This document shows positions 2,708-62,488 of a stretch of DNA of 64,000 bases, piece by piece. Each line of letters opens with the position of its first letter. Position 1 is the stretch's first letter. The notes beneath the pieces were generated by a model. It had not been told where the DNA came from, did no database searches, and saw only the letters and a list, made by a program, of their open reading frames with translations. The translations under genes and the position numbers were made by a program. This DNA is from an uncultured Gammaproteobacteria bacterium (lineage in GTDB: Bacteria > Patescibacteriota > Patescibacteriia > Patescibacteriales > GWC2-42-12), in contig CAZLKB010000001.1 in NCBI GenBank assembly GCA_964560005.1, positions 77,079 to 141,078 on the forward strand. Reading direction: 5' to 3'.

Positions 2708-3412
2708 TTAGTTCAGCGACGCGAGAATCTTCTCGGCCGCGGCTCGAGGATCCGGGTCTTCAGTGATCGGTCGGCCGATGACCAGCCAATTGGCGCCGTC
2801 CTGAATCGCCTGTTTCGGCGTGCCCGTTCGCTTCTGGTCTTGCGCCTCCGCTCCGGGCATTCGGATGCCCGGCGTTACCAATTGAATTTGAGCAGGCACT
2901 ATCTTCCGAACTGCCGCCACCTCTCTTGGCGAGCAAATCAAGCCGTCCAGTCCGGCAATAATAGCCAGTTTAGCGAGCCGTTCCACCTGTCCAAGGGGGT
3001 TATTGAAACCGATCGACTCCACTGCTTTGTGATCGAGGCTGGTGAGCATAGTAACGCCCAACACTAGGGGTGGAGGCTTCTCCATCCCCAAGGCTGTGGA
3101 TTGCGCTGCCTGTTTGGCGGCACTCATCATTTCTAGCCCGCCGCTGGCGTGCACGTTGAGCATACCGACGAAGAGCCTGGTCGCGGCTGCTACCGCTTTG
3201 GCCACTGTGTTCGGAATGTCGTGGAACTTCAGGTCCAAAAACAATAGACCCGCACCACCGGTCGCAACGCGAACCACCAAATTCGGTCCAGCGCTGGTAA
3301 ACAGTTCGCTACCGATCTTAAAACCACCCACCACCCCCTTGAGTTTTTCCACTAAGCTCAAGGCCTGTTCTGCTGTAGGCACATCAAGCGCCACTATAAT
3401 TGGATTTTTCAT
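2708..3412 (-). CDS. pyrF: Orotidine 5'-phosphate decarboxylase
   Basis: Motifs MKNPIIVALDV, LDLKFHDIPNTV and LVIGRPI. Start moved to the ATG at 3412 (aa 22 of the track ORF). Confidence 0.9.
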   Translation of the reverse strand: MKNPIIVALDVPTAEQALSLVEKLKGVVGGFKIGSELFTSAGPNLVVRVATGGAGLLFLDLKFHDIPNTVAKAVAAATRLFVGMLNVHASGGLEMMSAAKQAAQSTALGMEKPPPLVLGVTMLTSLDHKAVESIGFNNPLGQVERLAKLAIIAGLDGLICSPREVAAVRKIVPAQIQLVTPGIRMPGAEAQDQKRTGTPKQAIQDGANWLVIGRPITEDPDPRAAAEKILASLN

Positions 3413-3448
3413 AATCTTGCCTTTTCTTTCTGTTTCTGTGTTTTTTGT

Positions 3449-3531
3449 TTTAAAAGGGCATTTGCCGAGCCACAAGGCCCGGCACCCTCTTTTACTAAGC
3501 CTAAGTTACCTTAAATTAAGGAAAAATGCAA
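3449..3531 (-). promoter_or_regulatory. Duplicated promoter plus structured leader cassette, copy 2 (upstream of pyrF)
   Basis: On the minus strand: TTGCAT (rc 3526-3531), 17 nt, TAACTT (rc 3503-3508). The leader hairpin carries an A-to-G change that repairs the A.C mismatch seen in copy 1. Confidence 0.45.
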
Positions 3532-3540
3532 GGCACTAAT

Positions 3541-3622
3541 CTCGCAACTCATAGCTTATAACTCGTAGCTCAAGATGCAGAATTAAAGAAGTTATGAGCT
3601 ATGAGTTGCGAGTTACGAGCTA
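3541..3622. repeat. Long low-complexity inverted repeat (GAGCTA/CGAGTT theme)
   Basis: CTCGCAACTCATAGCTTATAAC pairs with GTTATGAGCTATGAGTTGCGAG. A second short pair, TAGCTC/GAGCTA, is interleaved with it. Confidence 0.55.
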
Positions 3623-3702
3623 CCAGACCTTGGCTGGACAAAAATAAAATTACATGATATACAATAAGGTTGGTTTGCTCTTTCTATTTGTAAATAAATT
3701 AG

Positions 3703-3763
3703 CAATCATTGCGGTTTTTAGCCTGCCCGCCGAGGAGGCGGGGTCTGTAAACTGCAATGATTG
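3703..3763 (+). repeat. GC-rich hairpin repeat variant (..GCAATGATTG)
   Basis: CAATCATTGCGG..CCTGCCCGCC-GAGGA-GGCGGGG..CTGCAATGATTG. It lies 50 nt upstream of the 3813 ATG. Confidence 0.45.
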
Positions 3764-3812
3764 TTGCAGACATAAATAAACAAACAAAAACACAGAAACT
3801 GAAAGGATAATA

Positions 3813-5438
3813 ATGAAACTAAAGAAAAAACCAGTACAGTTGATCGCCTCCGGTGATCTTCGCTTATCAGCCAACCAGGTCTGCTGGCCGGCTCAAAAAG
3901 CCATGGAAACGGCGCTCTGCATCGCCGTCAGAGACGAGGGCTATCAGGTATTCCGCGCTCATTCCTACGACTCGAAAACCCAGCACGGCTTCATCGCCTC
4001 GCAAAAGCAGGGCATGGAGGTCTTTAAAACGATTGACCCGACCGCGCCGCTCATCGTGGCCGAGGCCGTCTGGCAGTATTCTCACCACGTTCTGGCCGGC
4101 TTGACTACGCACCGTGGCCCGGTCCTCTTGGTCGCCAATTGGTCCGGAATGTGGCCCGGACTAGTCGGTATACTAAATCTGGCCGGCTCGCTTACCAAGG
4201 CCGACGTGAAATATTCCATGCTCTGGAGCGAAGACTTCCAGGACGATTATTTCAAAACCAGGCTCCGGCGCTGGCTCCGGACCGGCCGATGCACGCACGA
4301 CACTAGCCATGTTAGAGAACTGGCTAAGGTCAAACTTTACGCGAAAGCGCAACGGCTTGGCCGCAAGCTCGCCACCGATCTACTGCGTGACAAAGCCATT
4401 ATGGGCGTGTTTGATGAAGGCTGTATGGGCATGTTTAATGCCATCATCCCTGACCATCTGCTCCATGCCGTCGGCGTCTTCAAGGAGCACCTGTCGCAAT
4501 CGGCACTCTACGCCGAGATGCTAACTGTGCACGAAACTGATGCTCAGCATGTCTATGACTGGCTGCTAGCTAAAGGCATGAAGTTCCACACCGGCAGCGA
4601 CCAAGCCACCGAACTGACTGATAGCCAAATCCGTGGTCAGTGCGCCATGTATATCGCCGCAGTCCGCCTTGCCGATGATTTCGGCTGCGCCTGCATCGGC
4701 ATCCAATACCAGCAAGGCCTAAAAGACCTCTGCCCTGCCAGCGACCTGGCCGAAGGCATGCTTAATAACAGCGACCGTCCGCCGGTTAAATCACGCGACG
4801 GCAGTCGGATCCTGTTTGACGGCCAGCCGGTCGTGCACTTTAACGAAGTTGACGAGTGCGCCGGCCTGGACGGTCTCCTGATACAACGCGTACACCTAGC
4901 ACTCGATCAGCCGGTGGAAAACACCCTGCACGATCTGCGCTGGGGTGATACCGACAGATCCGGTGTTACGGGAGGAGCGTACATCTGGGTTTTTGAAATC
5001 AGCGGTTCGGCTCCGCCCGCGCACTTCATCAACGGCTGGGCCGGCGCCGAAGGTTTTCGCCAGCCGCCCATGTATTTCCCTAAAGGCGGCAGCACCTTGC
5101 GCGGCATCTCTAAACCCGGTGCAATCATCTGGTCGCGAATCTTCATCAAAGACGATGCCCTGCAAATGGACATCGGCCGCGGCGAAGTCGCCGAATTACC
5201 GCCCGGAGAAACCGAGCGCCGATGGAATGCCACCACTAAGGAGTGGCCCATCATGCATGCCGTCCTATATGGCATTACCCGTGATCAAATGATGGCCAGA
5301 CACAAGGCCAACCATATCCAAGTGGTCTATGCCACTGACGAAAATAGCGCCGACCAGTGCCTGGCGGTTAAGGCGGCCATGGCGGCCAAGCTGGGAATCA
5401 AAGTTCACGTCTGCGGAACCTTTCCCACGGTCGCATAA
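3813..5438 (+). CDS. L-fucose isomerase family protein
   Basis: 541 aa. The C-terminal half resembles FucI by eye ([40 protein letters not shown]). SD AAAGGA upstream. Leucines are mostly CTG/CTC. Confidence 0.6.
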
Positions 5439-21433: not shown

Positions 21434-21823
21434 TTACCACTTTTTAATCTCGGGGTGAAAGTCAACTTGATAGGCTGGTATGCCTAAAAAAATCCCATAC
21501 TGTTTTACCTCGTCATATTGTTTTTTACTTTGCCTGTCGATAAAAAATACTTTTTGACGAAAAATAATATAATGATGAGAATTATTTTTAAAATCAGCGT
21601 ACCAGGAGTGGCGTGGATCAAGTGATTTGCTTAATTCTTCCGCTATTGGAGCGGCTTGATTTTCTAAAATTTCAACTGTATGTAAAGTCCAATGTTCAAC
21701 CCAAGGGGTTTTATGCCTTGCGGTAACTTTTTCAATTTTCGTCCTAATAATTTTTACTTTTTTCAAAACCTCTTTTTTCTCAAGACTCTCTTCAATTATG
21801 ACCCCAATGAAATTATTAGTCAT
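21434..21823 (-). CDS. Hypothetical protein
   Basis: Start moved to the ATG at 21823 (MTNNFIGVIIEE..), which removes the overlap with the upstream gene. Confidence 0.45.
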   Translation of the reverse strand: MTNNFIGVIIEESLEKKEVLKKVKIIRTKIEKVTARHKTPWVEHWTLHTVEILENQAAPIAEELSKSLDPRHSWYADFKNNSHHYIIFRQKVFFIDRQSKKQYDEVKQYGIFLGIPAYQVDFHPEIKKW

Positions 21824-26513: not shown

Positions 26514-26606
26514 TCGGCGCAAACAACACCACGCGGCGCGTTCACCATCTGAATCCGCCGCTTTTTTATTAAAAAAACAGCTCTTTTAAAGCTGTTTTTT
26601 TTAGAG

Positions 26607-26681
26607 TGGAGCGGGTAACGGGAATCGAACCCGTATATTCAGATTGGCAACCTGACGTACTAACCATTGTACTATACCCGC
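26607..26681 (-). tRNA. tRNA-Gly(GCC)
   Basis: Acceptor GCGGGTA/TACCCGC, loop TTGCCAA, discriminator U, CCA encoded. Confidence 0.9.
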
Positions 26682-26747: not shown

Positions 26748-26833
26748 TGGTGGCTCAGGTGGGAGTCGAACCCACATGCCCATAGGACGCAACATTTTAA
26801 GTGTTGTGCGTATACCAGTTCCGCCACTGAGCC
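26748..26833 (-). tRNA. tRNA-Leu(TAA)
   Basis: Acceptor GGCTCAG/CTGAGCC, loop CTTAAAA, long variable arm, CCA encoded. Confidence 0.9.
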
Positions 26834-26836
26834 ATT

Positions 26837-27307
26837 CTATTTTTTACGATTTCTGCCGCGATGCGTTGGTTTTAAACTATGGCAATTGGGACAAAGGATT
26901 CTTAAATTTTCTATTCTATTGTCGCGACTATCGCCATTTATATGATCGAGCTCTAACGGCAAACGCCCATCTGGTGAAACCCTTGCCCAACCACATTCTT
27001 CGCATCTAGGCAATTTTAATTTCTCTTTATATAATCTTTTCTTTAACTTATAGCTTTGAAAATTACTACCTTTGACCAATATTTTATCTAATGCAATTCT
27101 CGGGCTGCTAAAACCTGTTAATCCTTTGTTCCAGCCACGCCCTTTAAGATGGCTCGTATTTATTTTGAAAATAACCAAATATTTTTTTATTTGATTGTAA
27201 TTTCCACCAGCTAGTTTAAGCCCAAGTAATTTTAATACTTGTCTAACGCTGGTTGATTTTTTAACCGCTTCTTTTAACTGCCGTTCGGTCCAACTTTTTG
27301 TTCTCAT
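26837..27307 (-). CDS. HNH endonuclease
   Basis: C-terminal LELDHINGDSRDNRIENLRILCPNCH. Start moved from TTG to the ATG at 27307. The stop lies 3 nt before the tRNA-Leu(TAA) 5' end. Confidence 0.8.
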   Translation of the reverse strand: MRTKSWTERQLKEAVKKSTSVRQVLKLLGLKLAGGNYNQIKKYLVIFKINTSHLKGRGWNKGLTGFSSPRIALDKILVKGSNFQSYKLKKRLYKEKLKLPRCEECGWARVSPDGRLPLELDHINGDSRDNRIENLRILCPNCHSLKPTHRGRNRKK

Positions 27308-27390
27308 ATATAATATTATATCATAATGGTAATGATATAACAATATACATACTAATACGTATACCTGTTCTATCTTTTCAATAAGTCGAG

Positions 27391-27770
27391 TGGAGATGAG
27401 GGGAATTGAACCCCTGTCTAATAAACTTCTTAAAGCATATTTACAGATTAGATCGATTTGTTTTCTCGCTACCGCCGTAAAAACCGAACAAAATCGGCCG
27501 TAGCAGAGCTTATTTTTTAAGATAACCGATAAAGCGATCGATTATTCGAGCCTATGATTTTACACTCGTATCCGGCGTATAGGCGTCAGCCGGGCGAATG
27601 GTTGCGGCTATTAAGCGGCAACAGGGGCAAAGGCCGGCATTTTCCAAGAAAATGTCGCTTTGCTCAATAAGTTTTTGACACTTATTATTTTCGAGCGCGA
27701 TTAAAGTGACGGCTCGAGACGCACTCCTGAATGCTTTAAAAAAATTTTATTATCGATGCCTAGCATCCCC
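27391..27770 (-). ncRNA. ssrA: tmRNA (SsrA)
   Basis: The 5' GGGGATG pairs with the 3' CATCTCC (G3:U70). T-arm AGGGG-TTCAATT-CCCCT. The internal tag frame ends ..PAFAPVAA then TAA TAG (27608-27658). smpB is adjacent. Confidence 0.85.
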
Positions 27771-27916: not shown

Positions 27917-28378
27917 TTACCGTTTTGTTAAGGTTCTTATTTGGCGGTCTAACTCTCTCTTTTTAATAACCCCTCTCTTGTCGTATTTCTTCCGCCCTTT
28001 GCCTATGCCGAATTCCAGCTTAATAAAACTATGCTTAGTATATATTTTTATGGGAACTAATGTCAAGCCTTGTTCGTCTTTTTTCCCCATCAGATAACCG
28101 ATTTCTTTCTTTTTTAAAAGCAATTTTCTGGAACGCAATGGGTCGTAGCCGGGGCGGTCGCCGGCAAACTTGTACAGAGGTATATGCGCATTAATCAAAT
28201 AAGCTTCGGGCAAGTTTTTTCCTCTCATCTTTTTGAAAGTCACATAACTGCCCTTTAGGCTTACATGCCCGGTTTTAATTGACTTTACTTCATAACCCAA
28301 TAGTACCAAGCCGGCTTCATAAGTTTCTTGGATGTCATAATCAAAATTCGCGCGTTTATTATAGGCCAGAGTGGGCAT
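27917..28378 (-). CDS. smpB: SsrA-binding protein
   Basis: 153 aa. NKRANFDYDIQETYEAGLVLLGYEVKSIK. Confidence 0.95.
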   Translation of the reverse strand: MPTLAYNKRANFDYDIQETYEAGLVLLGYEVKSIKTGHVSLKGSYVTFKKMRGKNLPEAYLINAHIPLYKFAGDRPGYDPLRSRKLLLKKKEIGYLMGKKDEQGLTLVPIKIYTKHSFIKLEFGIGKGRKKYDKRGVIKKRELDRQIRTLTKR

Positions 28379-28507: not shown

Positions 28508-29794
28508 TTACTTAACCACATTCCACTCCCTTAATTTCTCCATAACCTTTTTACCGGTTAAGTTATTAGCCACATAATCGCGGTATGACCGGCTCTTTAT
28601 CCTGTCGGCAATTTTTTGATCGCCCTGATATTGCTTTAAAACCTCTTCAATCGCTTTGTCTATATCATGTTCATGGGCTTGGATTTTTTCTAAATTCGCC
28701 ACTTCTCTGACGATTAAAGAAACCTTCACTCGCTTAACCGCGTCCGGCGTCATCTCCAGCATCATCTGCTCGCGGGTCTTTTTTAAGTGCAGTAAATAAT
28801 CTTCAAACTTACCGCCCTGTTTTTTCACGCCATACTCTAGTTCCGACATCATCACCTCGCCCTCATGCTTGATTAAAATCTCCGGTATCTCGCCGAATTT
28901 CGCGCCGGCGATTATTTTATCCAACATGGCGACTTCACTGGCTCGCTCTATTTCCTGCTTTTTTTCCGCCATCAGGCTTTTTTTAATATTACTCTTTAAT
29001 TCTTCCGCCGACTTTAAGCCGAACCCTTTAGCGAATTCTTCATTAACTTCCGGCAAGATCCGCTTATATATTTCTTTGACTTTAACCCTGAATTCGGCCA
29101 TTTTTCCGGCTAGGTTTTTATCATGGTGCTCGGCCGGATAGGGCAGGCTGAATTCTCGGACATCGTTTTTCTTCGCGTTAATAATCTGCTTATCAAAACC
29201 TGGAATAACATAATTTTTTCCGATAATCACGCTGGCGCCCTTGCCTTGGCCGCCTTCAACCGGAACTTTGTCTAAAAAAATCTCTATATCTAAAATTACC
29301 CGATTGCCGGCTTCGGCCGGAGCTTCGGAAATCGTTTCGCTGGCGCGCATTTCTCTTAATTCAGCTATTAATTTCTCCACTTCCTGGTCTTTAACTTCCG
29401 CCTCCGCCTCCTTTATTTTTAAATCTTTATATTTCCCCAGTTTGGTTTCGGGTAGCATGGTTAAAACTACTTTATACTCCATCGGATTATCGGGCGCGAG
29501 CTTAGTGATATTGATTTGCGGCTGGCCGACTATTTGTTCTTTCACATTATCTCTAATCGCCTTATCAGCGGTTTTATCAATGGCGATGCGCGCGGCTTCT
29601 TCTAATATCGTCATCTCGCCGATTTTAGCTTTTAAAATTTCGTACGGCGCCTTGCCCGGACGGAAGCCTTCAATTTTCACTTCCATAGAAACTTTTTCCG
29701 CTCCGCGCGAAACATACGGCTTAAACTCATCCGCCGTCAATTCCACGGTTAATTCAATTTGCGACTTACCTAGATCTTTTTTGGTTATGTTCAT
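28508..29794 (-). CDS. tig: Trigger factor
   Basis: 428 aa. N-terminal ribosome-binding motif GFRPGKAP and trigger factor domain order. Confidence 0.9.
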   Translation of the reverse strand: MNITKKDLGKSQIELTVELTADEFKPYVSRGAEKVSMEVKIEGFRPGKAPYEILKAKIGEMTILEEAARIAIDKTADKAIRDNVKEQIVGQPQINITKLAPDNPMEYKVVLTMLPETKLGKYKDLKIKEAEAEVKDQEVEKLIAELREMRASETISEAPAEAGNRVILDIEIFLDKVPVEGGQGKGASVIIGKNYVIPGFDKQIINAKKNDVREFSLPYPAEHHDKNLAGKMAEFRVKVKEIYKRILPEVNEEFAKGFGLKSAEELKSNIKKSLMAEKKQEIERASEVAMLDKIIAGAKFGEIPEILIKHEGEVMMSELEYGVKKQGGKFEDYLLHLKKTREQMMLEMTPDAVKRVKVSLIVREVANLEKIQAHEHDIDKAIEEVLKQYQGDQKIADRIKSRSYRDYVANNLTGKKVMEKLREWNVVK

Positions 29795-55827: not shown

Positions 55828-56775
55828 AACAGTTAGGTGATATAAAGGATATGGAACAAATTTAGTATAATTAAATTGTGAAGCAATTTAATTATAACTA
55901 TAATTTGCATCCATATGCTCAAATTAAAATTAGATTTTAACGACCGGCAGCTGCAAACTAAATTACGAAAGATTGTTTTTAAAAATGGCCGGTTAAAATG
56001 CCCCCGTTGCGGTTCGTTCATAATTAGGAAGGTTAAATCGGAGAAAAGATATTACTGCAAACGCTGCCGTAAAAAGTTTTCTGCTTTGTCATCCAGCTGG
56101 CTGAAAAATATCAAAATACCTTTGTCTCAATTTACTGTTTTATTACAGCTCTGGTTGAAAGGTTACGGTGTGGCTGAAGCCAATGAACTGACTAAGGTAT
56201 CAGTGCCAACTATTAGGAAATATTACAGTTTGTTTAGGTTAAATATCGTAAAATCCATTGATTTTAAAGCAGAAAACAACGTTCAGGTCGACGAAGCCTA
56301 TTTCGGCAGGTTTCGCAAAGACGGAAACATCTATCATAGCTGGAGGACTTATCATTCACCACCCAAGACCTGCGTCGCCGGCATCGGTTGCCCGGTTAAC
56401 GGGCAATTAGCTACCAGGGTGATAGAAGGAACCAAGGGAGAAAAGATCAGGCGGTTTATTCGTGAACAGGTTCCAACCAACATCCATGTTTATTCTGACG
56501 GCAGTTATATCTATACCAATCTGCGCCAGGACTATCATCACACTTCGCAAACCCATGATCTGGGATTTGAAAACGCCTATTACATCGAATCTTGCTGGTC
56601 CTGGATGAAAAGAAAACTGTTTAAACAATACCACCATTTCCACAAAAAGAATGCCGTAGATTATGTGTCAGAATTGACCTGGCGATTTAACACAAGAAAA
56701 ATGCAGAAAAATGCCTTAGATTATTTACAAAAATCACTTTGACTGTTCCACATCCTTTACATGACCCAAACAGTT
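55828..56775 (+). mobile_element. IS1595-family insertion sequence
   Basis: Imperfect terminal inverted repeats: AACAGTTAGGTGATATAAAGGATATGGAACA (55828-55858) versus the rc of 56744-56775, AACTGTTTGGGTCATGTAAAGGATGTGGAACA. One transposase ORF lies between them. Confidence 0.65.
55915..56742 (+). CDS. IS1595-family transposase
   Basis: N-terminal zinc ribbon CPRCGS..CKRCRKKF and DDE region VQVDEAYFG..VYSDGSYIY..ESCWSWMKR. Confidence 0.8.
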   Translation: MLKLKLDFNDRQLQTKLRKIVFKNGRLKCPRCGSFIIRKVKSEKRYYCKRCRKKFSALSSSWLKNIKIPLSQFTVLLQLWLKGYGVAEANELTKVSVPTIRKYYSLFRLNIVKSIDFKAENNVQVDEAYFGRFRKDGNIYHSWRTYHSPPKTCVAGIGCPVNGQLATRVIEGTKGEKIRRFIREQVPTNIHVYSDGSYIYTNLRQDYHHTSQTHDLGFENAYYIESCWSWMKRKLFKQYHHFHKKNAVDYVSELTWRFNTRKMQKNALDYLQKSL

Positions 56776-57118: not shown

Positions 57119-57172
57119 AAAAAAACCGCTTATTTATAGCTGTTTTGTGTTCACTAAATTAACAAGTCGCTG

Positions 57173-57245
57173 GGTGAGATATGGGAATTGAACCCATGAT
57201 GCGAGTACCACAAACTCGCGTGATAACCACTTCACTAATCTCACC
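57173..57245 (-). tRNA. tRNA-His(GTG) with encoded G-1
   Basis: G-1 plus acceptor GTGAGAT/ATCTCAC, discriminator C, loop TTGTGGT, T-arm ATGGG-TTCAATT-CCCAT. Confidence 0.85.
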
Positions 57246-57252
57246 ATAATAT

Positions 57253-57723
57253 TTAAAAATCTTCGTTATGGTCATGCACTAACCAGTGGCAATTTCTGCA
57301 CAACCAAACTAGATTATTTAAATTCGTATTCTTTCTATTTTTATCAATGTGATGTGCTATGATTACTCTTTTATCCGTCAACCCGCATTTTTCACAAATT
57401 ATTTTTCTCCCGGACTTAATCAACTTATTTCTATAAACATGCTCACCGCCTTGCCAAAGATAATGATTTTCTCCCGAGTACACACCGTTCCGCCACTTAG
57501 TCTGGCAGGATTTACTACAGAAAAATTTACCACTCCTAGATCCTTCTATGTCCTTAGGCATCTTCCAAGTCTTTTTACCGCAAATATCACAATTTACATA
57601 CTTACCCTTCCTTCTTGATATGTCGGCACATTTACGAGAACAGTTCTTACCCCATCCCAACTTCAGATGATTGGGTTTCACATAAAATTCCTTATTGCAA
57701 ATTTTACATTTTATCTGAGGCAT
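57253..57723 (-). CDS. HNH endonuclease with N-terminal multi-CxxC zinc fingers
   Basis: IIAHHIDKNRKNTNLNNLVWLCRNCHWLVH. The stop lies 7 nt before the tRNA-His 5' end. Confidence 0.8.
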   Translation of the reverse strand: MPQIKCKICNKEFYVKPNHLKLGWGKNCSRKCADISRRKGKYVNCDICGKKTWKMPKDIEGSRSGKFFCSKSCQTKWRNGVYSGENHYLWQGGEHVYRNKLIKSGRKIICEKCGLTDKRVIIAHHIDKNRKNTNLNNLVWLCRNCHWLVHDHNEDF

Positions 57724-57875
57724 CCCTTAACTATACCACCCAAACCCCAAAATGTAAAACAATAGAGTTGTGGTATCATCTAATGCACTACCCTCATACT
57801 TTCTTTTTTCTTTAAACAAAAGTTGCCTCATCGGCAACTTTTATAATATAACAGAATTTGCTAAAAAGTCAACCT

Positions 57876-58406
57876 CTATCGTACTGTCGCCGCTACCTTT
57901 TTCTCTCTATATAATAACGCCAGACTGGCCTCGTAAGCTCCCACCAAGACTCCGGTATAGAACAAATCCCCTAATAGGCTGTTCCTAAAAAATGGTATGG
58001 CCATAATATATGATTGCATCAGACCGGCAAAATTATGCGCATAGAGCGAACCGAATGCCCAAACCGCTCCGTTGGTTGCCAGATAAAAGATAACACTGCC
58101 TAAAATCGTGCCGCCTAAAATCGTGCCGACTTTCTTGTTCCGCCTCACCCATAAGCCGATTAATGCCGTAAGCGCCAAACCGGCATAAACCGAAAGCATG
58201 ATGGGCAGGCTGTAAAAACCGATAAAAATATCACTAAACAGCATGGCCGCTAACGGCAAGACAATCGCCCATTTTTTCGGCAGATACAGCCCGGAAAAAA
58301 TCGCGATGGCGCCGATGGGCGCGAAGTTGGCCGGATGCGGCAGAAATCTGGCCGCGATGCCCAAAGTAATTAAAATAAAAGCGGGTAATAACTTTTTCAT
58401 GTTCAT
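57876..58406 (-). CDS. Small polytopic membrane protein, candidate vitamin-transporter substrate component
   Basis: 176 aa with about six TM segments. Last gene behind the cobalamin-riboswitch-like leader. Confidence 0.45.
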   Translation of the reverse strand: MNMKKLLPAFILITLGIAARFLPHPANFAPIGAIAIFSGLYLPKKWAIVLPLAAMLFSDIFIGFYSLPIMLSVYAGLALTALIGLWVRRNKKVGTILGGTILGSVIFYLATNGAVWAFGSLYAHNFAGLMQSYIMAIPFFRNSLLGDLFYTGVLVGAYEASLALLYREKKVAATVR

Positions 58407-58488
58407 ATAATTTTATTTAATTCGTAATAATTCGCGTCTAATTCGTTATTTCCATTATACCAGAAAATTCGATAATTTCAATACAAAA

Positions 58489-60156
58489 TTATAAACTAAC
58501 TCCACTATATGCAATAGCCCGAACAGTGTCCCAATCTAAAGCCGATTTCGGCAGATACTTATATACTTTTACGAACACACCAATACCTGCCTGCTCCAGA
58601 CTAAAATCGCGGCTGGCCGGCCGTAAGCCATAAGCCATTAGATCAATCGCTTCTTTATCATTAGTATTTTCCATATCCGCCTCTCGGCCATAGACTTTTT
58701 TAAACTCCGCTTTAGCTCTTGCTTCTGCCGCCGAATTGACCGTTGAAGGTAGCTGATTATTGCTGATTTTTATAATATTTTCCCAGTCAGTTTGAGTTTC
58801 CGGCGTATAACCAAAGGTTGACTTAAAAGAATTGAGCACACCGGCGCGCTCGCCCGCGCCTAACCTGGCGGTGCCAGGAGTTCCCTGCGCTATGAAATCA
58901 GGCGTCTGGCCGCTGATAATGCCGGCGGCTTCCGCGGCAGCACTGTCTAATAATTGCTCGGCCGAAGAGCTGGCGATTTTTACGCCCAATACTTCAGCCT
59001 CTAAATCAGCTTGATCGCCGACATCGGAAACCGGTTTAATACTTTCAACGGTTTCCGCCTCCGGCGCGACGCAAGCTCTCTTTCTCTCCGCATCTTGCTC
59101 GGCCGTTAAAGTGCAATTTACCGGAAAAATTGTTAGAACATTTCTATATTGCCAATTGTCAACGCAAGTATTTTGCCAAATGTCATATTCTACGCTCCGG
59201 CAGTCAACTGGAATAAAAATTCCGCCGCCGCCGGAAGACGGAGCCGGGTCCGGAGCGGGAATTTGATCCGGAATCGGCTGAGGAATATCATAATAGCCGA
59301 TGGGAAAACTCTTGCCGGCCAGAGCGATAACCGCGTATGGCGTCATAGCCTTATTATTAAACTCCGGATTGCCGCTAGGATCCATCCACCAAAAACCGCC
59401 GTCCGCGCCATCTTGCAATAATTGTAAATGAGTTAACGGACTATTGCCATTTTTTATCCAAGCGGCTGGCTGCTCGCCGATTCTATAAATAGCGGAGATT
59501 ACCCAGGCGTCAGAGCCGGAATCGCTGGCCGTGCCCCAGACCGGATCGTTCATAAACCCGCCATCGTCGTTTTGCCGAGTATGGAGAAAGGCAACGGCGT
59601 TAGTGATAACCGCGCTACCCGCATCCAGCCCCATTTCTAAAAGCGCCATTACAGCCGCGGCCGTGTCATTACTGCCGCTTGAGCCGCCGACCGCGTAGCC
59701 CCAGCCGCCATCGGCATTTTGATTGGCCAATAAAAAATCCTTGGCCGCGATCGCTTCAGCCGAGCCTGTCTTTTTGATTGAGGCCAAAGCTAAAATAGAC
59801 CAGATATCGTCGTTTAATAAAGTGGCGTCGCCCATTTGGGTGCCGTCATAGTAGGATTGTAATTTGGCGACATAATCAATACTGCCAAAAGTGGTTGGGT
59901 TTTCCCCGGCCGCGGCCAAAGCTAAAATAGTTTTGGCATAATCATTGGTCGGATTAAAGCCTCCTTCAGCTACGCTTTTCAGATGATCAATCGGCACGCC
60001 GGTTTCGCCGGCCGCGACTAGAGCCTGGGTAATCCAGGCGTCCGGAGTTTGGTTTTTTAAATAATCCACGGCTTCCGGTAGGCCCGCCGAGGCGGCGTTA
60101 GGCAGATAGATTGCTACAAGCGCAAAAAATAAAATTAAAAAAATTTTTGTTTTCAT
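58489..60156 (-). CDS. Secreted protein with prenyltransferase/terpene-cyclase-like alpha/alpha-toroid repeats
   Basis: Signal peptide MKTKIFLILFFALVAIYLPNAASA. Repeats QNADGGWGY, RQNDDGGF and QDGADGGFWW. The track ORF extends to 60195. Confidence 0.55.
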   Translation of the reverse strand: MKTKIFLILFFALVAIYLPNAASAGLPEAVDYLKNQTPDAWITQALVAAGETGVPIDHLKSVAEGGFNPTNDYAKTILALAAAGENPTTFGSIDYVAKLQSYYDGTQMGDATLLNDDIWSILALASIKKTGSAEAIAAKDFLLANQNADGGWGYAVGGSSGSNDTAAAVMALLEMGLDAGSAVITNAVAFLHTRQNDDGGFMNDPVWGTASDSGSDAWVISAIYRIGEQPAAWIKNGNSPLTHLQLLQDGADGGFWWMDPSGNPEFNNKAMTPYAVIALAGKSFPIGYYDIPQPIPDQIPAPDPAPSSGGGGIFIPVDCRSVEYDIWQNTCVDNWQYRNVLTIFPVNCTLTAEQDAERKRACVAPEAETVESIKPVSDVGDQADLEAEVLGVKIASSSAEQLLDSAAAEAAGIISGQTPDFIAQGTPGTARLGAGERAGVLNSFKSTFGYTPETQTDWENIIKISNNQLPSTVNSAAEARAKAEFKKVYGREADMENTNDKEAIDLMAYGLRPASRDFSLEQAGIGVFVKVYKYLPKSALDWDTVRAIAYSGVSL

Positions 60157-60202
60157 AAAATTAATTATTTTATTATTAAAATTATTTATTTTCATATTTT
60201 AT

Positions 60203-60244
60203 TGTTGTCATTGCGAGGAGCCCGTACTCGGGCGACGCGGCAAT
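60203..60244 (-). repeat. GC-rich hairpin repeat variant (..CTCGCAATGACAACAA)
   Basis: The rc reads ATTGCCGCGTCGCCCGAGTACGGGCTCCTCGCAATGACAACAA. Confidence 0.5.
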
Positions 60245-60266
60245 TTCATTAACGGGGTAGAATAAA

Positions 60267-60818
60267 TTAAAAACTTTTTTTCTCATACTTCCATTCTATA
60301 ACATCATTATTTTTTAATTTATAATATGACACGCCGACTTGAGCCGGTTGGCCGTTAACATAATATAGCCAATTTTTACCGGCCGGGTCATTCTTAACGC
60401 CATTAATTTCTTCAATGAAAAACCCCAGTCTGGAATAATCACGACTCTTAAAATCAATTTTATTCTGCTCTTTTAACAACCGCATTAAATCATAGACCGT
60501 GCTATCCGGGGAAACTTGCGCTTCATATTTAACTCCGCTGATTGCTAGATTGGCTAAAATTTTCTTGTTCGGCTCGGACGCCGGAGCTTTGGCTTGGTCC
60601 TGATTTAGCGCTCGTTCATTTTCTTGAGCCGCCTGCTCAGCCGATTTAGTAATGATTTTAGCCTGATTAAGCGCATTTGCTAAACCGCCGGGCGCGTCAT
60701 TACCGGCCAAGGACATTAAACCTACTTCACTGTTTGTCAAATGCTTCACGGTTGAAACGCCAACCCAGGCTAATAGCAGAAAAACTAAAAAAAATATGGC
60801 TAAATTTTTTACTTTCAT
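60267..60818 (-). CDS. Membrane-anchored DUF4430-domain protein (transcobalamin beta-domain-like)
   Basis: C-terminal TVYDLMRLL..GFFIEEINGVKNDPAGKNWLYYVNGQPAQVGVSYYKLKNNDVIEWKY. Start taken at the ATG at 60818. The upstream ATG at 60836 lies inside a repeat. Confidence 0.7.
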   Translation of the reverse strand: MKVKNLAIFFLVFLLLAWVGVSTVKHLTNSEVGLMSLAGNDAPGGLANALNQAKIITKSAEQAAQENERALNQDQAKAPASEPNKKILANLAISGVKYEAQVSPDSTVYDLMRLLKEQNKIDFKSRDYSRLGFFIEEINGVKNDPAGKNWLYYVNGQPAQVGVSYYKLKNNDVIEWKYEKKSF

Positions 60819-60831
60819 ATAATCTATCGCC

Positions 60832-60856
60832 GTCATCCCCGCGAAAGCGGGGATCC
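60832..60856 (-). repeat. GC-rich hairpin repeat, short form (GGATCCCCGCTTTCGCGGGGATGAC)
   Basis: 7-bp stem TCCCCGC/GCGGGGA. Overlaps the longer track ORF start. Confidence 0.55.
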
Positions 60857-60960
60857 AGAAATGCTTAATTACGAAAAACCCGCCCTGCTTCGAGCGGATC
60901 CGATAAATTTAACATTATTAAATTTATTTTCTTTGCTCGAAGAATAACTATATAAGTTAG

Positions 60961-61052
60961 TTATCAGCGTTCTGGCTTGTTCCCCCACCATCTTGGTGAA
61001 GGACATTACAGTTGCGGCACAGCGCCGGGTTTACACCGGACTTTCCTGATAA
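60961..61052 (-). promoter_or_regulatory. Cobalamin riboswitch-like aptamer (compact form)
   Basis: Minus strand: P1 TTATCAG/CTGATAA. Core GGAAAGTCCGGTGTAAACCCGGCGCTGTGCCGCAACTGTAA and B12-box-like AAGCCAGAACGCTG. Confidence 0.7.
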
Positions 61053-61068
61053 CTATTGTTGTTTCTAT

Positions 61069-61096
61069 ATTATATAACTTTTGTAGAAAGAGTCAA
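61069..61096 (-). promoter_or_regulatory. Canonical sigma70-type promoter for the riboswitch operon
   Basis: On the minus strand: TTGACT (rc 61091-61096), 16 nt, TATAAT (rc 61069-61074). The predicted start is about 10 nt before P1. Confidence 0.5.
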
Positions 61097-61100
61097 TCAG

Positions 61101-61172
61101 TACGCCCAGGGGGAATCGAACCCTCATATCCAGCTTAGAAGGCTGGTGTTCTATCCATTGAACTATGGGCGC
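61101..61172 (-). tRNA. tRNA-Arg(TCT)
   Basis: Acceptor GCGCCCA/TGGGCGT (G1.U72), loop CTTCTAA, T-arm GAGGG-TTCGATT-CCCCC with one mismatch. Confidence 0.8.
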
Positions 61173-61412: not shown

Positions 61413-62336
61413 TTATTTCTTCCTCCTCCCATGAAACGCCTTATGCACGTCCCTTAGTTGCTGATCGGTGATATGAGTATAAACTTGGGTGGTAGTGATG
61501 GAGGAGTGCCCGAGCATGGCCTGCACGCTCCTTATGTCCGCGCCGTTCATCAGTAAATCGGTGGCATAGCTATGGCGCATGGTGTGAGGGGTAACCTGCT
61601 TGGTGATGCCGGCTACCTTGGCATATTTTTGCACTAACCGTTGCACGCTTCTCGGTGTAAGCCCCTCTTCTTTTTCGCGTCCGCCTGAAGCTTTGTCATG
61701 GCTGATAAATAAATAGGGATTAATATCATGCCTGACTTTTAAATAATCTTCAATTGAATGCCTGGCCTCGTCGGATAAAAACACTACGCGCAGTTTAGAA
61801 CCTTTTCCTCGCACCGTGAATTCATCTTTTTTTAAATTAATGTTTTCAATTTTTAATTTACATAATTCGGAAACGCGAAGCCCGGTGGAAAAAAACAATT
61901 CTAAAATCGCTTTATCTCGTTTTCTGATAATTTCCGGCAGTTCAATCTTAAACGGCGCCTCCAATATCCGCTCCAAGTCAGAGCCTTCTAAAAAATCTAC
62001 CTGCCTTTGCTGCTGCTTAGCCAATTCCACTTTTTCCGGCTCTAAAGATTTTATGTCGGTCTTCACCAGATATTTTAAAAACCCGCGCAGAGCGATTAAA
62101 TGATAATTTTGCGTATTTTTTTTCAAACCCTTATTTTCATCGCTTCCCAGTCTATTTAAAAATAAGCGGTATTTATGCACTAATTCTTTGCTAATTTTAG
62201 CCGGTGTGCTTACCCCCGCCTCTTTGGCGAAGGCGGCAAATCTATTTAAATAAAAATCATAATTATCAGTAGTATTGCGCGACAAACCCTTTTCCACCTC
62301 CATATATTCAATAAATTGTTTTATATATTTTTCCAT
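61413..62336 (-). CDS. Tyrosine recombinase, XerC/XerD family
   Basis: RHSYATDLL..LGHSSITTTQVYTH catalytic region. Start moved from TTG (62357) to the ATG at 62336. Confidence 0.85.
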   Translation of the reverse strand: MEKYIKQFIEYMEVEKGLSRNTTDNYDFYLNRFAAFAKEAGVSTPAKISKELVHKYRLFLNRLGSDENKGLKKNTQNYHLIALRGFLKYLVKTDIKSLEPEKVELAKQQQRQVDFLEGSDLERILEAPFKIELPEIIRKRDKAILELFFSTGLRVSELCKLKIENINLKKDEFTVRGKGSKLRVVFLSDEARHSIEDYLKVRHDINPYLFISHDKASGGREKEEGLTPRSVQRLVQKYAKVAGITKQVTPHTMRHSYATDLLMNGADIRSVQAMLGHSSITTTQVYTHITDQQLRDVHKAFHGRRKK

Positions 62337-62348
62337 AGGATCTATATG

Positions 62349-62488
62349 GCCGGACAAAGGTTTTAGTTTTGAGCGGCTCCTCTGTGCTTTCCTCGGAGCT
62401 AAAAAGGGGACGAGGGAGAAATTGTTGCATTTTTTAATTAAAAATGCCCAAATTTCGTCTAAGCGAAAAACTAAAACCTTTGTCCGGC
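62349..62488 (+). repeat. Structured element, type B, copy B5
   Basis: Arms GCCGGACAAAGGTTTTAG / CTAAAACCTTTGTCCGGC. Core TTTTGAGCGGCTCC..AAATTTCGTCTAAGCGAAAAA. Confidence 0.7.

Follow-up and report, generated by a model that had tools for sequence, protein, structure and literature searches.

We analysed a stretch of 64,000 nucleotides, referred to below as the window, from a genome deposited as an uncultured Gammaproteobacteria bacterium and assigned by GTDB to the Patescibacteriota (assembly GCA_964560005.1, contig CAZLKB010000001.1, positions 77,079 to 141,078; coordinates given here are those of the window). On its minus strand lies HNH1, an open reading frame (ORF) of 156 amino acids coding for an HNH endonuclease (26837-27307; start codon ATG at 27307-27305, stop codon TAG at 26839-26837). 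Only the trinucleotide AAT (26834-26836, minus strand) separates its stop codon from the first nucleotide (+1) of a tRNA-Leu(UAA) gene (26748-26833, minus strand), and a tRNA-Gly(GCC) gene (26607-26681, minus strand) follows after a further 66 nt. This arrangement, described in an initial annotation of the sequence, was confirmed by ARAGORN and Rfam, which both detected the two tRNA genes, and by direct reading of the sequence.

The cassette formed by HNH1 is embedded in a run of stable RNA genes that opens with the tmRNA gene (27388-27770; Rfam RF00023, 118 bits, in agreement with ARAGORN) and closes with tRNA-Gly(GCC). The complete order on the minus strand is tig (28508-29794), smpB (27917-28378; Pfam SmpB, E 1.2e-46), tmRNA, HNH1, tRNA-Leu(UAA), tRNA-Gly(GCC) and a terminator-like hairpin (26571-26601) with an A-tract before it and a T-tract after it. 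None of 200 shuffled sequences was as stable as this hairpin (-13.8 kcal/mol, z -4.4), which likely represents the end of the transcription unit. The smpB gene served as synteny anchor; its gene order is the same in the related loci L001, L002, L006, L008 and L018 (L numbers designate loci used for comparison), and tRNA-Gly is also kept in relatives. Patescibacteria with the label Falkowbacteria-like are closest to this locus, sharing 90% identity in SmpB.

A second gene of this type, HNH2, also codes for 156 amino acids on the minus strand (57253-57723; stop codon TAA at 57255-57253). It ends 7 nt before the encoded G-1 (57245) of a tRNA-His(GUG) gene (57172-57245 including G-1, tRNA body 57172-57244, minus strand; ARAGORN, Rfam and sequence reading). 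The profiles of the HNH1 and HNH2 families match only these two genes in the window, and each of them abuts a tRNA gene on the same strand. The window contains seven tRNA genes, and the chance of one HNH gene abutting a same-strand tRNA gene in it is, by a rough estimate, about 6e-4. We propose that HNH1 is probably a free-standing homing endonuclease cassette specific to the tRNA-Leu(UAA) gene, and that HNH2 is a cassette of the same kind at tRNA-His(GUG).

Protein family and phage relatives

HNH1 fits the HNH endonuclease superfamily. It scores above the cut-offs of the Pfam families HNH (PF01844; 28.7 bits, cut-off 21.4) and HNH_3 (PF13392; 27.8 bits, cut-off 24.8), and it has the beta-beta-alpha-metal core and the zinc cysteines. 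The top full-length family match was PHROG 10822 'HNH endonuclease' (E 1.5e-42) and the best PADLOC model was 'HEase' (homing endonuclease). Eight residues are invariant in 27 sequences (C102, C105, D121, H122, N134, C139, C142 and H143), a set that covers the HNH catalytic residues and both C-x-x-C zinc pairs. An AlphaFold2 model (mean pLDDT 78.7) consists of an N-terminal three-helix domain and a zinc-bound HNH core. In sequence and fold searches of solved structures the core alone found matches (McrA, Cap5, Gme nickase), and the N-terminal domain, a generic three-helix bundle, had no match of its own. More than 5,000 relatives of HNH1 were counted at 90% clustering; where named, nearly all are from Patescibacteria. 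Some database proteins (P0021, P0045, P0074 and P0079 in alignment A1) carry C-terminal extensions such as ...GSVAERHTRNT, which are the translated 5' half of tRNA-Leu and stop at the anticodon TAA. The N-terminal domain of P0021 is duplicated.

HNH2 combines an HNH core with a cysteine-rich N-terminal half that holds repeated C-x2-C motifs. Its score against Pfam HNH (19.1 bits) is slightly below the cut-off, and it matches phage HNH families in PHROGs (PHROG 1271, E 2e-14). The initial annotation had described HNH2 as unrelated to HNH1 and in the same arrangement with its tRNA. The arrangement was found as described, but the genes are related to a degree: their HNH cores can be aligned (31% over 77 amino acids, E 8e-6), and the remainder of the two proteins is not shared.

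Full-length homologues of HNH1 are common in phages, with 35-51% identity. Within a tRNA array of Citrobacter phage Michonne, the HNH gene gp141 ends 1 nt before tRNA-Leu(tag). The corresponding ORFs of Gordonia phage GodonK (gp149), Vibrio phage D69 and Synechococcus phage S-CRM01 (g201) overlap the next tRNA by 10-15 nt, and an unannotated HNH match in PEi26 ends 8 nt before tRNA-Met, with tRNA-Leu directly upstream. Of 64 distinct relatives from IMG/VR, 57 have tRNA genes at a distance of no more than 3 kb; in 9 cases tRNA-Leu(taa) directly follows the gene downstream, and in 14 it is directly upstream, mostly at 60-90 nt. Consequently, the whole family is tied to tRNA arrays, and to tRNA-Leu above all. 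The phage proteins of PHROG 10822 (Michonne, GodonK, S-CRM01, D69) share the two-domain organization of HNH1 (35-45% full-length identity), their stop codons are situated -15 to +8 nt from the next tRNA and, like HNH1, they are often tied to tRNA-Leu. Unlike HNH1, they are followed by various tRNAs (Leu(tag), Glu, Met and others), and tRNA-Leu is often found upstream of them; the Patescibacteria HNH1 proteins form a distinct clade, with at most 51% identity to any viral copy.

The best described system of comparable layout is SegB of phage T4, a free-standing homing endonuclease encoded in a tRNA gene cluster and present or absent among relatives (PMC2330249). The segB gene is transcribed with the tRNAs, the end of its ORF is juxtaposed to the next tRNA, where 5' maturation cuts at the stop codon, and a hairpin at the 5' end of the ORF has been proposed to limit its expression or translation (PMC2330249). 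SegB itself is a phage-borne GIY-YIG enzyme with no nearby promoter of its own, and numerous tRNA genes are cleaved by it at a conserved motif, T-psi-C (PMC2330249). HNH1 is similarly embedded in a stable RNA operon, with the end of its ORF at the 5' end of the next tRNA. In contrast to SegB, it has an HNH and not a GIY-YIG domain (none but HNH domains were found), and both HNH1 and HNH2 are chromosomal, possess their own promoter-like sequences and are associated with one tRNA identity per family. By analogy, HNH1 can be regarded as functionally of the SegB type, outside the protein family of SegB. Further endonuclease ORFs in phage tRNA clusters, to which HNH1 can be likened by their description, are also embedded among tRNA genes, and a lowered expression by transcript processing has been proposed for them; unlike HNH1, they are phage-borne. 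The presence of HNH genes in the tRNA clusters of phages has been remarked on in general terms (PMC6409571). In the literature we found no specific link between HNH genes and tRNAs for Patescibacteria, and no account of chromosomal, tRNA-identity-specific families. The HNH1 cassette would appear to be the chromosomal counterpart of T4 SegB and of the HNH genes of phage tRNA clusters.

Occupied and empty tRNA sites

The reference scan, with one genome per species, detected at least 591 HNH1 carriers. The best 80, belonging to many lineages, were examined, and downstream DNA was available for 79 of them; in all 79 the next same-strand feature after HNH1 was tRNA-Leu(taa). On the other side, tRNA-Cys(gca) is usually located 55-190 nt upstream of HNH1, and tmRNA takes this place in the lineage of the window. 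A profile census, redundant loci included, counted HNH1 followed by tRNA-Leu(taa) 132 times and HNH2 followed by tRNA-His(gtg) 25 times, with about six genes elsewhere. These results show that the site of HNH1 is tied to one tRNA identity across Patescibacteria, and the placement of HNH1 next to tRNA is far beyond chance. HNH1-like genes downstream of tRNA-Leu(taa) were observed as exceptions in L160 and L211; no tRNA was detected after either gene, and in L160 the tRNA-Leu(taa) lies within a tightly packed Val-Leu-Leu array.

The HNH2 relatives found in three further lineages all abut tRNA-His(gtg) (gap -4 to +11 nt), often with tRNA-Arg(tct) just upstream, and two more distant members of the family are situated at tRNA-Arg(tct) in L181 and at tRNA-Ser(tga) in L079. 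Adjacency of HNH and tRNA genes is thus strongly enriched in both families, in line with the proposal of the initial annotation that such endonucleases home into tRNA loci. Five of five tRNA-His genes met incidentally lacked HNH2, and at the HNH2-less sites of L062, L132 and L197 tRNA-Arg(tct) lies 3-15 nt upstream.

Occupancy of the tRNA-Leu(UAA) site was estimated from a metagenome search with a pattern wholly within the anticodon arm of tRNA-Leu(UAA), which makes the sample blind to the presence of HNH1. Full HNH1 was present in 39 of the 103 informative loci, 3 retained only the C-terminal third of the gene and 61 had none, giving an occupancy of about 40%; the GC range was equal in occupied and empty loci. 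Orthologous tRNA loci thus vary in HNH presence, as would be expected from the homing behaviour suggested in the initial annotation. In many empty sites tRNA-Cys is located 3-70 nt from tRNA-Leu. The clearest empty allele is that of L137, a relative with SmpB 84% identical to that of the window, in which the run of tmRNA, tRNA-Leu and tRNA-Gly is intact with 146 nt between tmRNA and tRNA-Leu(taa). L137 is nested among the occupied relatives L001, L018 and L019 and the more distant L002, L006 and L008 (SmpB 72-74%), and its tRNA-Leu differs from that of L001 at one position. Two other loci, L146 and L196, are empty as well, with 40 and 13 nt between tmRNA and tRNA-Leu(taa), and L206, from the same tmRNA-tag lineage, is occupied.

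Decayed copies of HNH1 were also found, with an internal deletion in L150, a deletion and frameshifts in L142 and an interruption in L229. HNH1 thus displays a constant site, presence or absence among close relatives and decayed copies, which are among the features by which homing genes are recognized. The same tRNA-Leu(UAA) slot can be occupied by other endonuclease genes: L197 has a LAGLIDADG gene ending 10 nt before the tRNA, and L184 a GIY-YIG gene with an internal stop codon; in L098 a GIY-YIG gene abuts tRNA-Arg(tct). Comparison of L083 with L095 revealed HNH proteins 93% identical (dS 0.77) next to tRNAs just 73% identical, and the similarity, judged by eye, begins near the heptamer located upstream of the gene (see below) and ends by the HNH stop codon. 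This pair shows what appears to be a transfer of the cassette without the tRNA, the one clear case; clusters otherwise follow synteny. Taken together, these alleles show a cassette that would be gained, would decay and would be lost at one exact spot, the 5' edge of tRNA-Leu(UAA). The decayed copies, the other endonucleases in the slot, the L083/L095 transfer and the phage relatives in tRNA arrays all agree with the idea of selfish endonucleases put forward when the locus was first annotated.

Several other features were noticed in or near these slots. In the window, an ORF of 129 amino acids (21434-21823, minus strand) that matched nothing in Pfam, PHROGs, NCBIfam or PADLOC is situated between an SBP_bac_5 gene and tRNA-Leu(cag) and ends 17 nt before the tRNA. 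It is not found in L001, L002 and L005, in which 12-101 nt separate the end of the SBP_bac_5 gene from the tRNA, and may represent a further cargo gene in a slot 5' of a tRNA. In L008 (3152-3844; also in L009-L017) the complete Rfam tmRNA model spans 693 nt, which corresponds to an insertion of about 310 nt coding for a GIY-YIG ORF of 86 amino acids (3398-3658); the gene was missed by ARAGORN. Placed directly upstream of the HNH1 cassette, this insertion may represent an intron, or an intervening sequence, that encodes an endonuclease of its own. In L018 (approximately 3500-3930) and in L166, a gene for a '23S rRNA-intervening sequence protein' (PF05635), with short AAATCG/GATTT-type repeats on both sides, is located between tmRNA and the tRNA-Leu region; judged by eye, the spacer of L137 seems to retain just a remnant. 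The 885 nt between tRNA-Cys and tRNA-Leu(taa) in L186 and L226 include a stretch that by eye resembles the reverse complement of the conserved 16S rRNA site around 806 (GGACTAC...GGGTATCTAATCC). Rfam at the gathering score called no rRNA in this spacer, and the stretch could be explained by chimerism of the contig or by insertion of an rRNA fragment into the slot.

Near HNH2, the region 57876-61172 (minus strand) of the window separates tRNA-Arg(tct) from tRNA-His(gtg), which are 3-15 nt apart in other Patescibacteria. Between the two tRNA genes lie an AdoCbl riboswitch (60919-61072), a DUF4430 gene, a prenyltransferase/cyclase-like gene, a DUF6580 gene and then HNH2. A tyrosine recombinase gene (61413-62357) is located directly upstream of tRNA-Arg. 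About 430 nt past the 3' end of tRNA-His, on the opposite strand, there is a transposase gene of the IS1595 family (55915-56742, plus strand) with DDE_Tnp_IS1595 and zinc ribbon domains.

Cassette anatomy and expression

The predicted cassette consists of a promoter, a leaderless ORF of 156 codons and essentially no 3' untranslated region. A putative sigma-70-like promoter, TTGTTA-17-TATAAT with a TG extension, was detected by a promoter scan (27315-27343, minus strand; 10 of 12 matches), and the end of its -10 box lies 7 nt from the ATG of HNH1. Among 123 related loci, this spacing is 6-7 nt in 45 and a Shine-Dalgarno-like motif is present in just 3; the mRNA is therefore predicted to be leaderless. 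HNH2 has a similar promoter-like sequence, TTTACA-17-TATAGT with a TG extension (57730-57758, minus strand), 6 nt before its ATG, and the TTTACA...TAtaaT layout is shared by L098 and L118. These conserved sequences suggest that the HNH1 cassette carries a promoter of its own, and they lend no support to the initial proposal that such endonucleases use tRNA promoters.

Upstream of the promoter the family shares an inverted repeat. Its 5' arm, the heptamer GGTATAC in the window (27359-27365, minus strand), has the consensus GGTAnAC and occurs at about -70 to -40, with a peak at -60 to -51, in 86 of 120 loci compared with 8-22 in controls. A complementary partner about 31 nt downstream was found in 49 of the 120 loci versus none in controls, the two arms bracketing the -35 box. 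In an alignment of 50 sequences (A3) 78% of cells pair, a share that drops to 33-45% with a slid partner, and the modest covariation (0.20 versus 0.15) was reached by none of 500 shuffles. The repeat is degenerate in the window, where the 3' arm, CATTACC (27328-27334, minus strand), is weakly complementary. Its role is probably the regulation of expression: it may serve as an operator, or it may fold on read-through transcripts into a hairpin that blocks translation.

At the 3' end of the gene, the gap between the stop codon and the tRNA is 0-10 nt in 60 of the 123 loci. In 56 others of this set the first in-frame stop codon overlaps position +1 of the tRNA (4 loci) or lies inside it (52 loci), and in 9 of these 52 it is the anticodon TAA itself. 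As HNH ORFs often run into the tRNA gene, such genes should be annotated with caution. Rfam detected no group I intron or other known RNA within the cassette and no intron family in the window; with the tRNA also intact, an intron-encoded endonuclease was rejected. An integrase-mediated tRNA/tmRNA island was likewise rejected, the cassette comprising one gene and the repeat, where present, being the 5' part of the tRNA.

A scenario that fits these features can be proposed. HNH1 would bind and then nick or cut the tRNA-Leu(UAA) region of a cassette-free allele, which might have been acquired by DNA uptake from a relative or a phage. The cassette would be copied during repair with the occupied allele as template, tRNA-Cys or tmRNA on the left and tRNA-Leu on the right serving as homology arms. 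The cassette's own promoter would drive a leaderless HNH1 mRNA that continues into tRNA-Leu and tRNA-Gly; RNase P, by cutting at position +1 of tRNA-Leu, would leave an mRNA with a tail of 0-10 nt or, in the 56 of 123 loci mentioned above, an mRNA without an intact stop codon. Such trimming would keep the level of the nuclease low, as proposed for T4 segB. We infer this co-transcription and cutting by RNase P from the precedent of segB (PMC2330249). The cut had initially been placed at the stop codon of HNH1 itself; in the window the predicted position falls 3 nt after it.

Origin and maintenance of the cassette

Several observations weigh against a cassette maintained by homing only. HNH1 is, to judge from substitution rates, under strong purifying selection (dN/dS 0.02-0.10, with synonymous sites saturated even at 91% protein identity), and its level of conservation is no lower than that of SmpB, IF3 and Tig. 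The HNH1 of L001 is 91% identical to that of the window, versus 82% for SmpB and 85% for IF3, and that of L206 is 67% identical, versus 59% for SmpB. Since HNH1 is conserved like housekeeping genes and its clusters mostly track host synteny, long vertical retention seems to dominate and fits these data better than frequent homing. Viral copies in IMG/VR reach 51% identity at most, and no phage vector could be recognized among them. The cleavage activity of HNH1 and the tRNA-Leu(UAA) gene as its target are presumed. Pairwise comparison of HNH identity with tRNA identity was uninformative (rho 0.09), the signal being lost to saturation.

A further difficulty is the self-protection of the occupied allele. 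No systematic difference in tRNA-Leu was found between occupied and empty alleles, and a D-loop change (GGTATAC versus GGTAGAC) considered as protection of occupied alleles was rejected, its frequencies being equal in both. Self-protection is hard to explain without such a difference; a nicking enzyme or a very low expression of HNH1 would settle this puzzle. I-HmuI of phage SPO1, an HNH nicking homing endonuclease with an HNH core and a DNA-binding module of the helix-turn-helix type, belongs to a type of enzymes that nick occupied and empty alleles alike; it is intron-encoded and its domain order is unlike that of HNH1. Nicking of this kind would, by analogy, explain the lack of immunity polymorphism at HNH1 sites.

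The strength of conservation leads to the explanation that HNH1 is a domesticated host gene. It would serve a cellular function connected with tRNA-Leu(UAA) or with the uptake and recombination of DNA, or its cassette would supply the promoter that drives tRNA-Leu. Host selection would then keep the gene, and empty sites would mean that it is dispensable in some lineages. Besides the low dN/dS, the saturated dS and a conservation not below that of SmpB, IF3 and Tig, this explanation can draw on the number of reference genomes that carry HNH1 (at least 591), on clusters largely tracking synteny and on the position of a conserved promoter upstream of an essential tRNA. It is nevertheless unlikely, as about 60% of the sampled loci lack HNH1, including a close relative of the window, pseudogenized copies and unrelated homing endonuclease families occur in the same slot, and the relatives of HNH1 are typical phage homing endonucleases. 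Some benefit of HNH1 to the host may exist all the same.

Another explanation starts from the tRNA-like sequences upstream of the promoter. In the window, a degenerate copy of the tRNA-Leu D-arm (GATAGAACAGGTATACGTA; 27356-27374, minus strand), identified by local alignment to positions 13-25 of the tRNA, contains the GGTATAC heptamer. Clear copies, of 17-25 nt, of the 5' part of tRNA-Leu (nucleotides 1-27) are present in about 11 loci, and longer tRNA-like copies in L018, L049, L008, L066 and L091. An element could have inserted into tRNA-Leu near nucleotide 27, bringing a replacement 5' part or a whole tRNA and leaving the displaced 5' fragment upstream, like the islands that target tRNA genes but on the 5' side; the direct repeats would allow its precise loss. 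These copies, the D-loop heptamer in 86 of 120 loci and the L018 fragment, which stands where the 5' end of the tRNA is found in the empty alleles L166 and L137, are all consistent with such an insertion. We consider it very unlikely, however, because L083 and L095 have the cassette in common and differ in their tRNAs, 5' part included, the tRNA of the same locus ranks well as a match to the fragment (median 11th percentile) but is rarely the best one, and the cassette has no integrase. In several loci, moreover, the heptamer is just 3-9 nt from tRNA-Cys, too short for a full tRNA 5' part. Measured from tRNA-Cys, the distances to the heptamer (occupied loci) and to the D-loop (empty loci) have overlapping but different distributions.

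Finally, that HNH1 is a restriction-like or defence nuclease of the McrA, ZorE or Cap5 type, located beside tRNAs by accident, is suggested by the resemblance of the HNH core, and this was rejected as highly improbable because the match is limited to a core of about 50 amino acids (NCBIfam ZorE 23 bits, cut-off 600), no partner genes were found nearby (the neighbours are smpB, tmRNA and tRNAs), the best PADLOC model is that of a homing endonuclease and the tRNA-specific placement far exceeds chance.

The homing cassette that we favour may also be combined with elements of domestication. In this rather doubtful reading, HNH1 would be part of a semi-domesticated module for the expression and quality control of tRNA-Leu(UAA), and several tRNA identities (Leu-UAA, His-GUG, Arg-UCU, Ser-UGA) would each be paired with an endonuclease lineage of their own. 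If so, the HNH1 promoter would drive tRNA-Leu(UAA) and the protein would be held at housekeeping-level conservation. The stop-less mRNA of 56 of 123 loci would feed the neighbouring smpB-tmRNA system, and the dosage of the nuclease would be coupled to tRNA processing and ribosome rescue.

Homing endonucleases of tRNA clusters have been studied in phages (T4, T5), and the loci described here extend the same strategy to the chromosomes of cells throughout a bacterial radiation. A single endonuclease family goes with each tRNA identity, and occupied, empty and decayed alleles are all at hand. This relation accounts for the recurrence of small 'HNH endonuclease' genes in Patescibacteria genome bins and indicates where the recognition sequence of HNH1 should be sought, namely in or beside the tRNA-Leu(UAA) gene. 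If the combined reading is true, tRNA operons would be the main arena of selfish DNA in the minimal genomes of Patescibacteria. These loci offer a natural system for studying the persistence of a selfish nuclease in tiny genomes that presumably depend on the uptake of external DNA.

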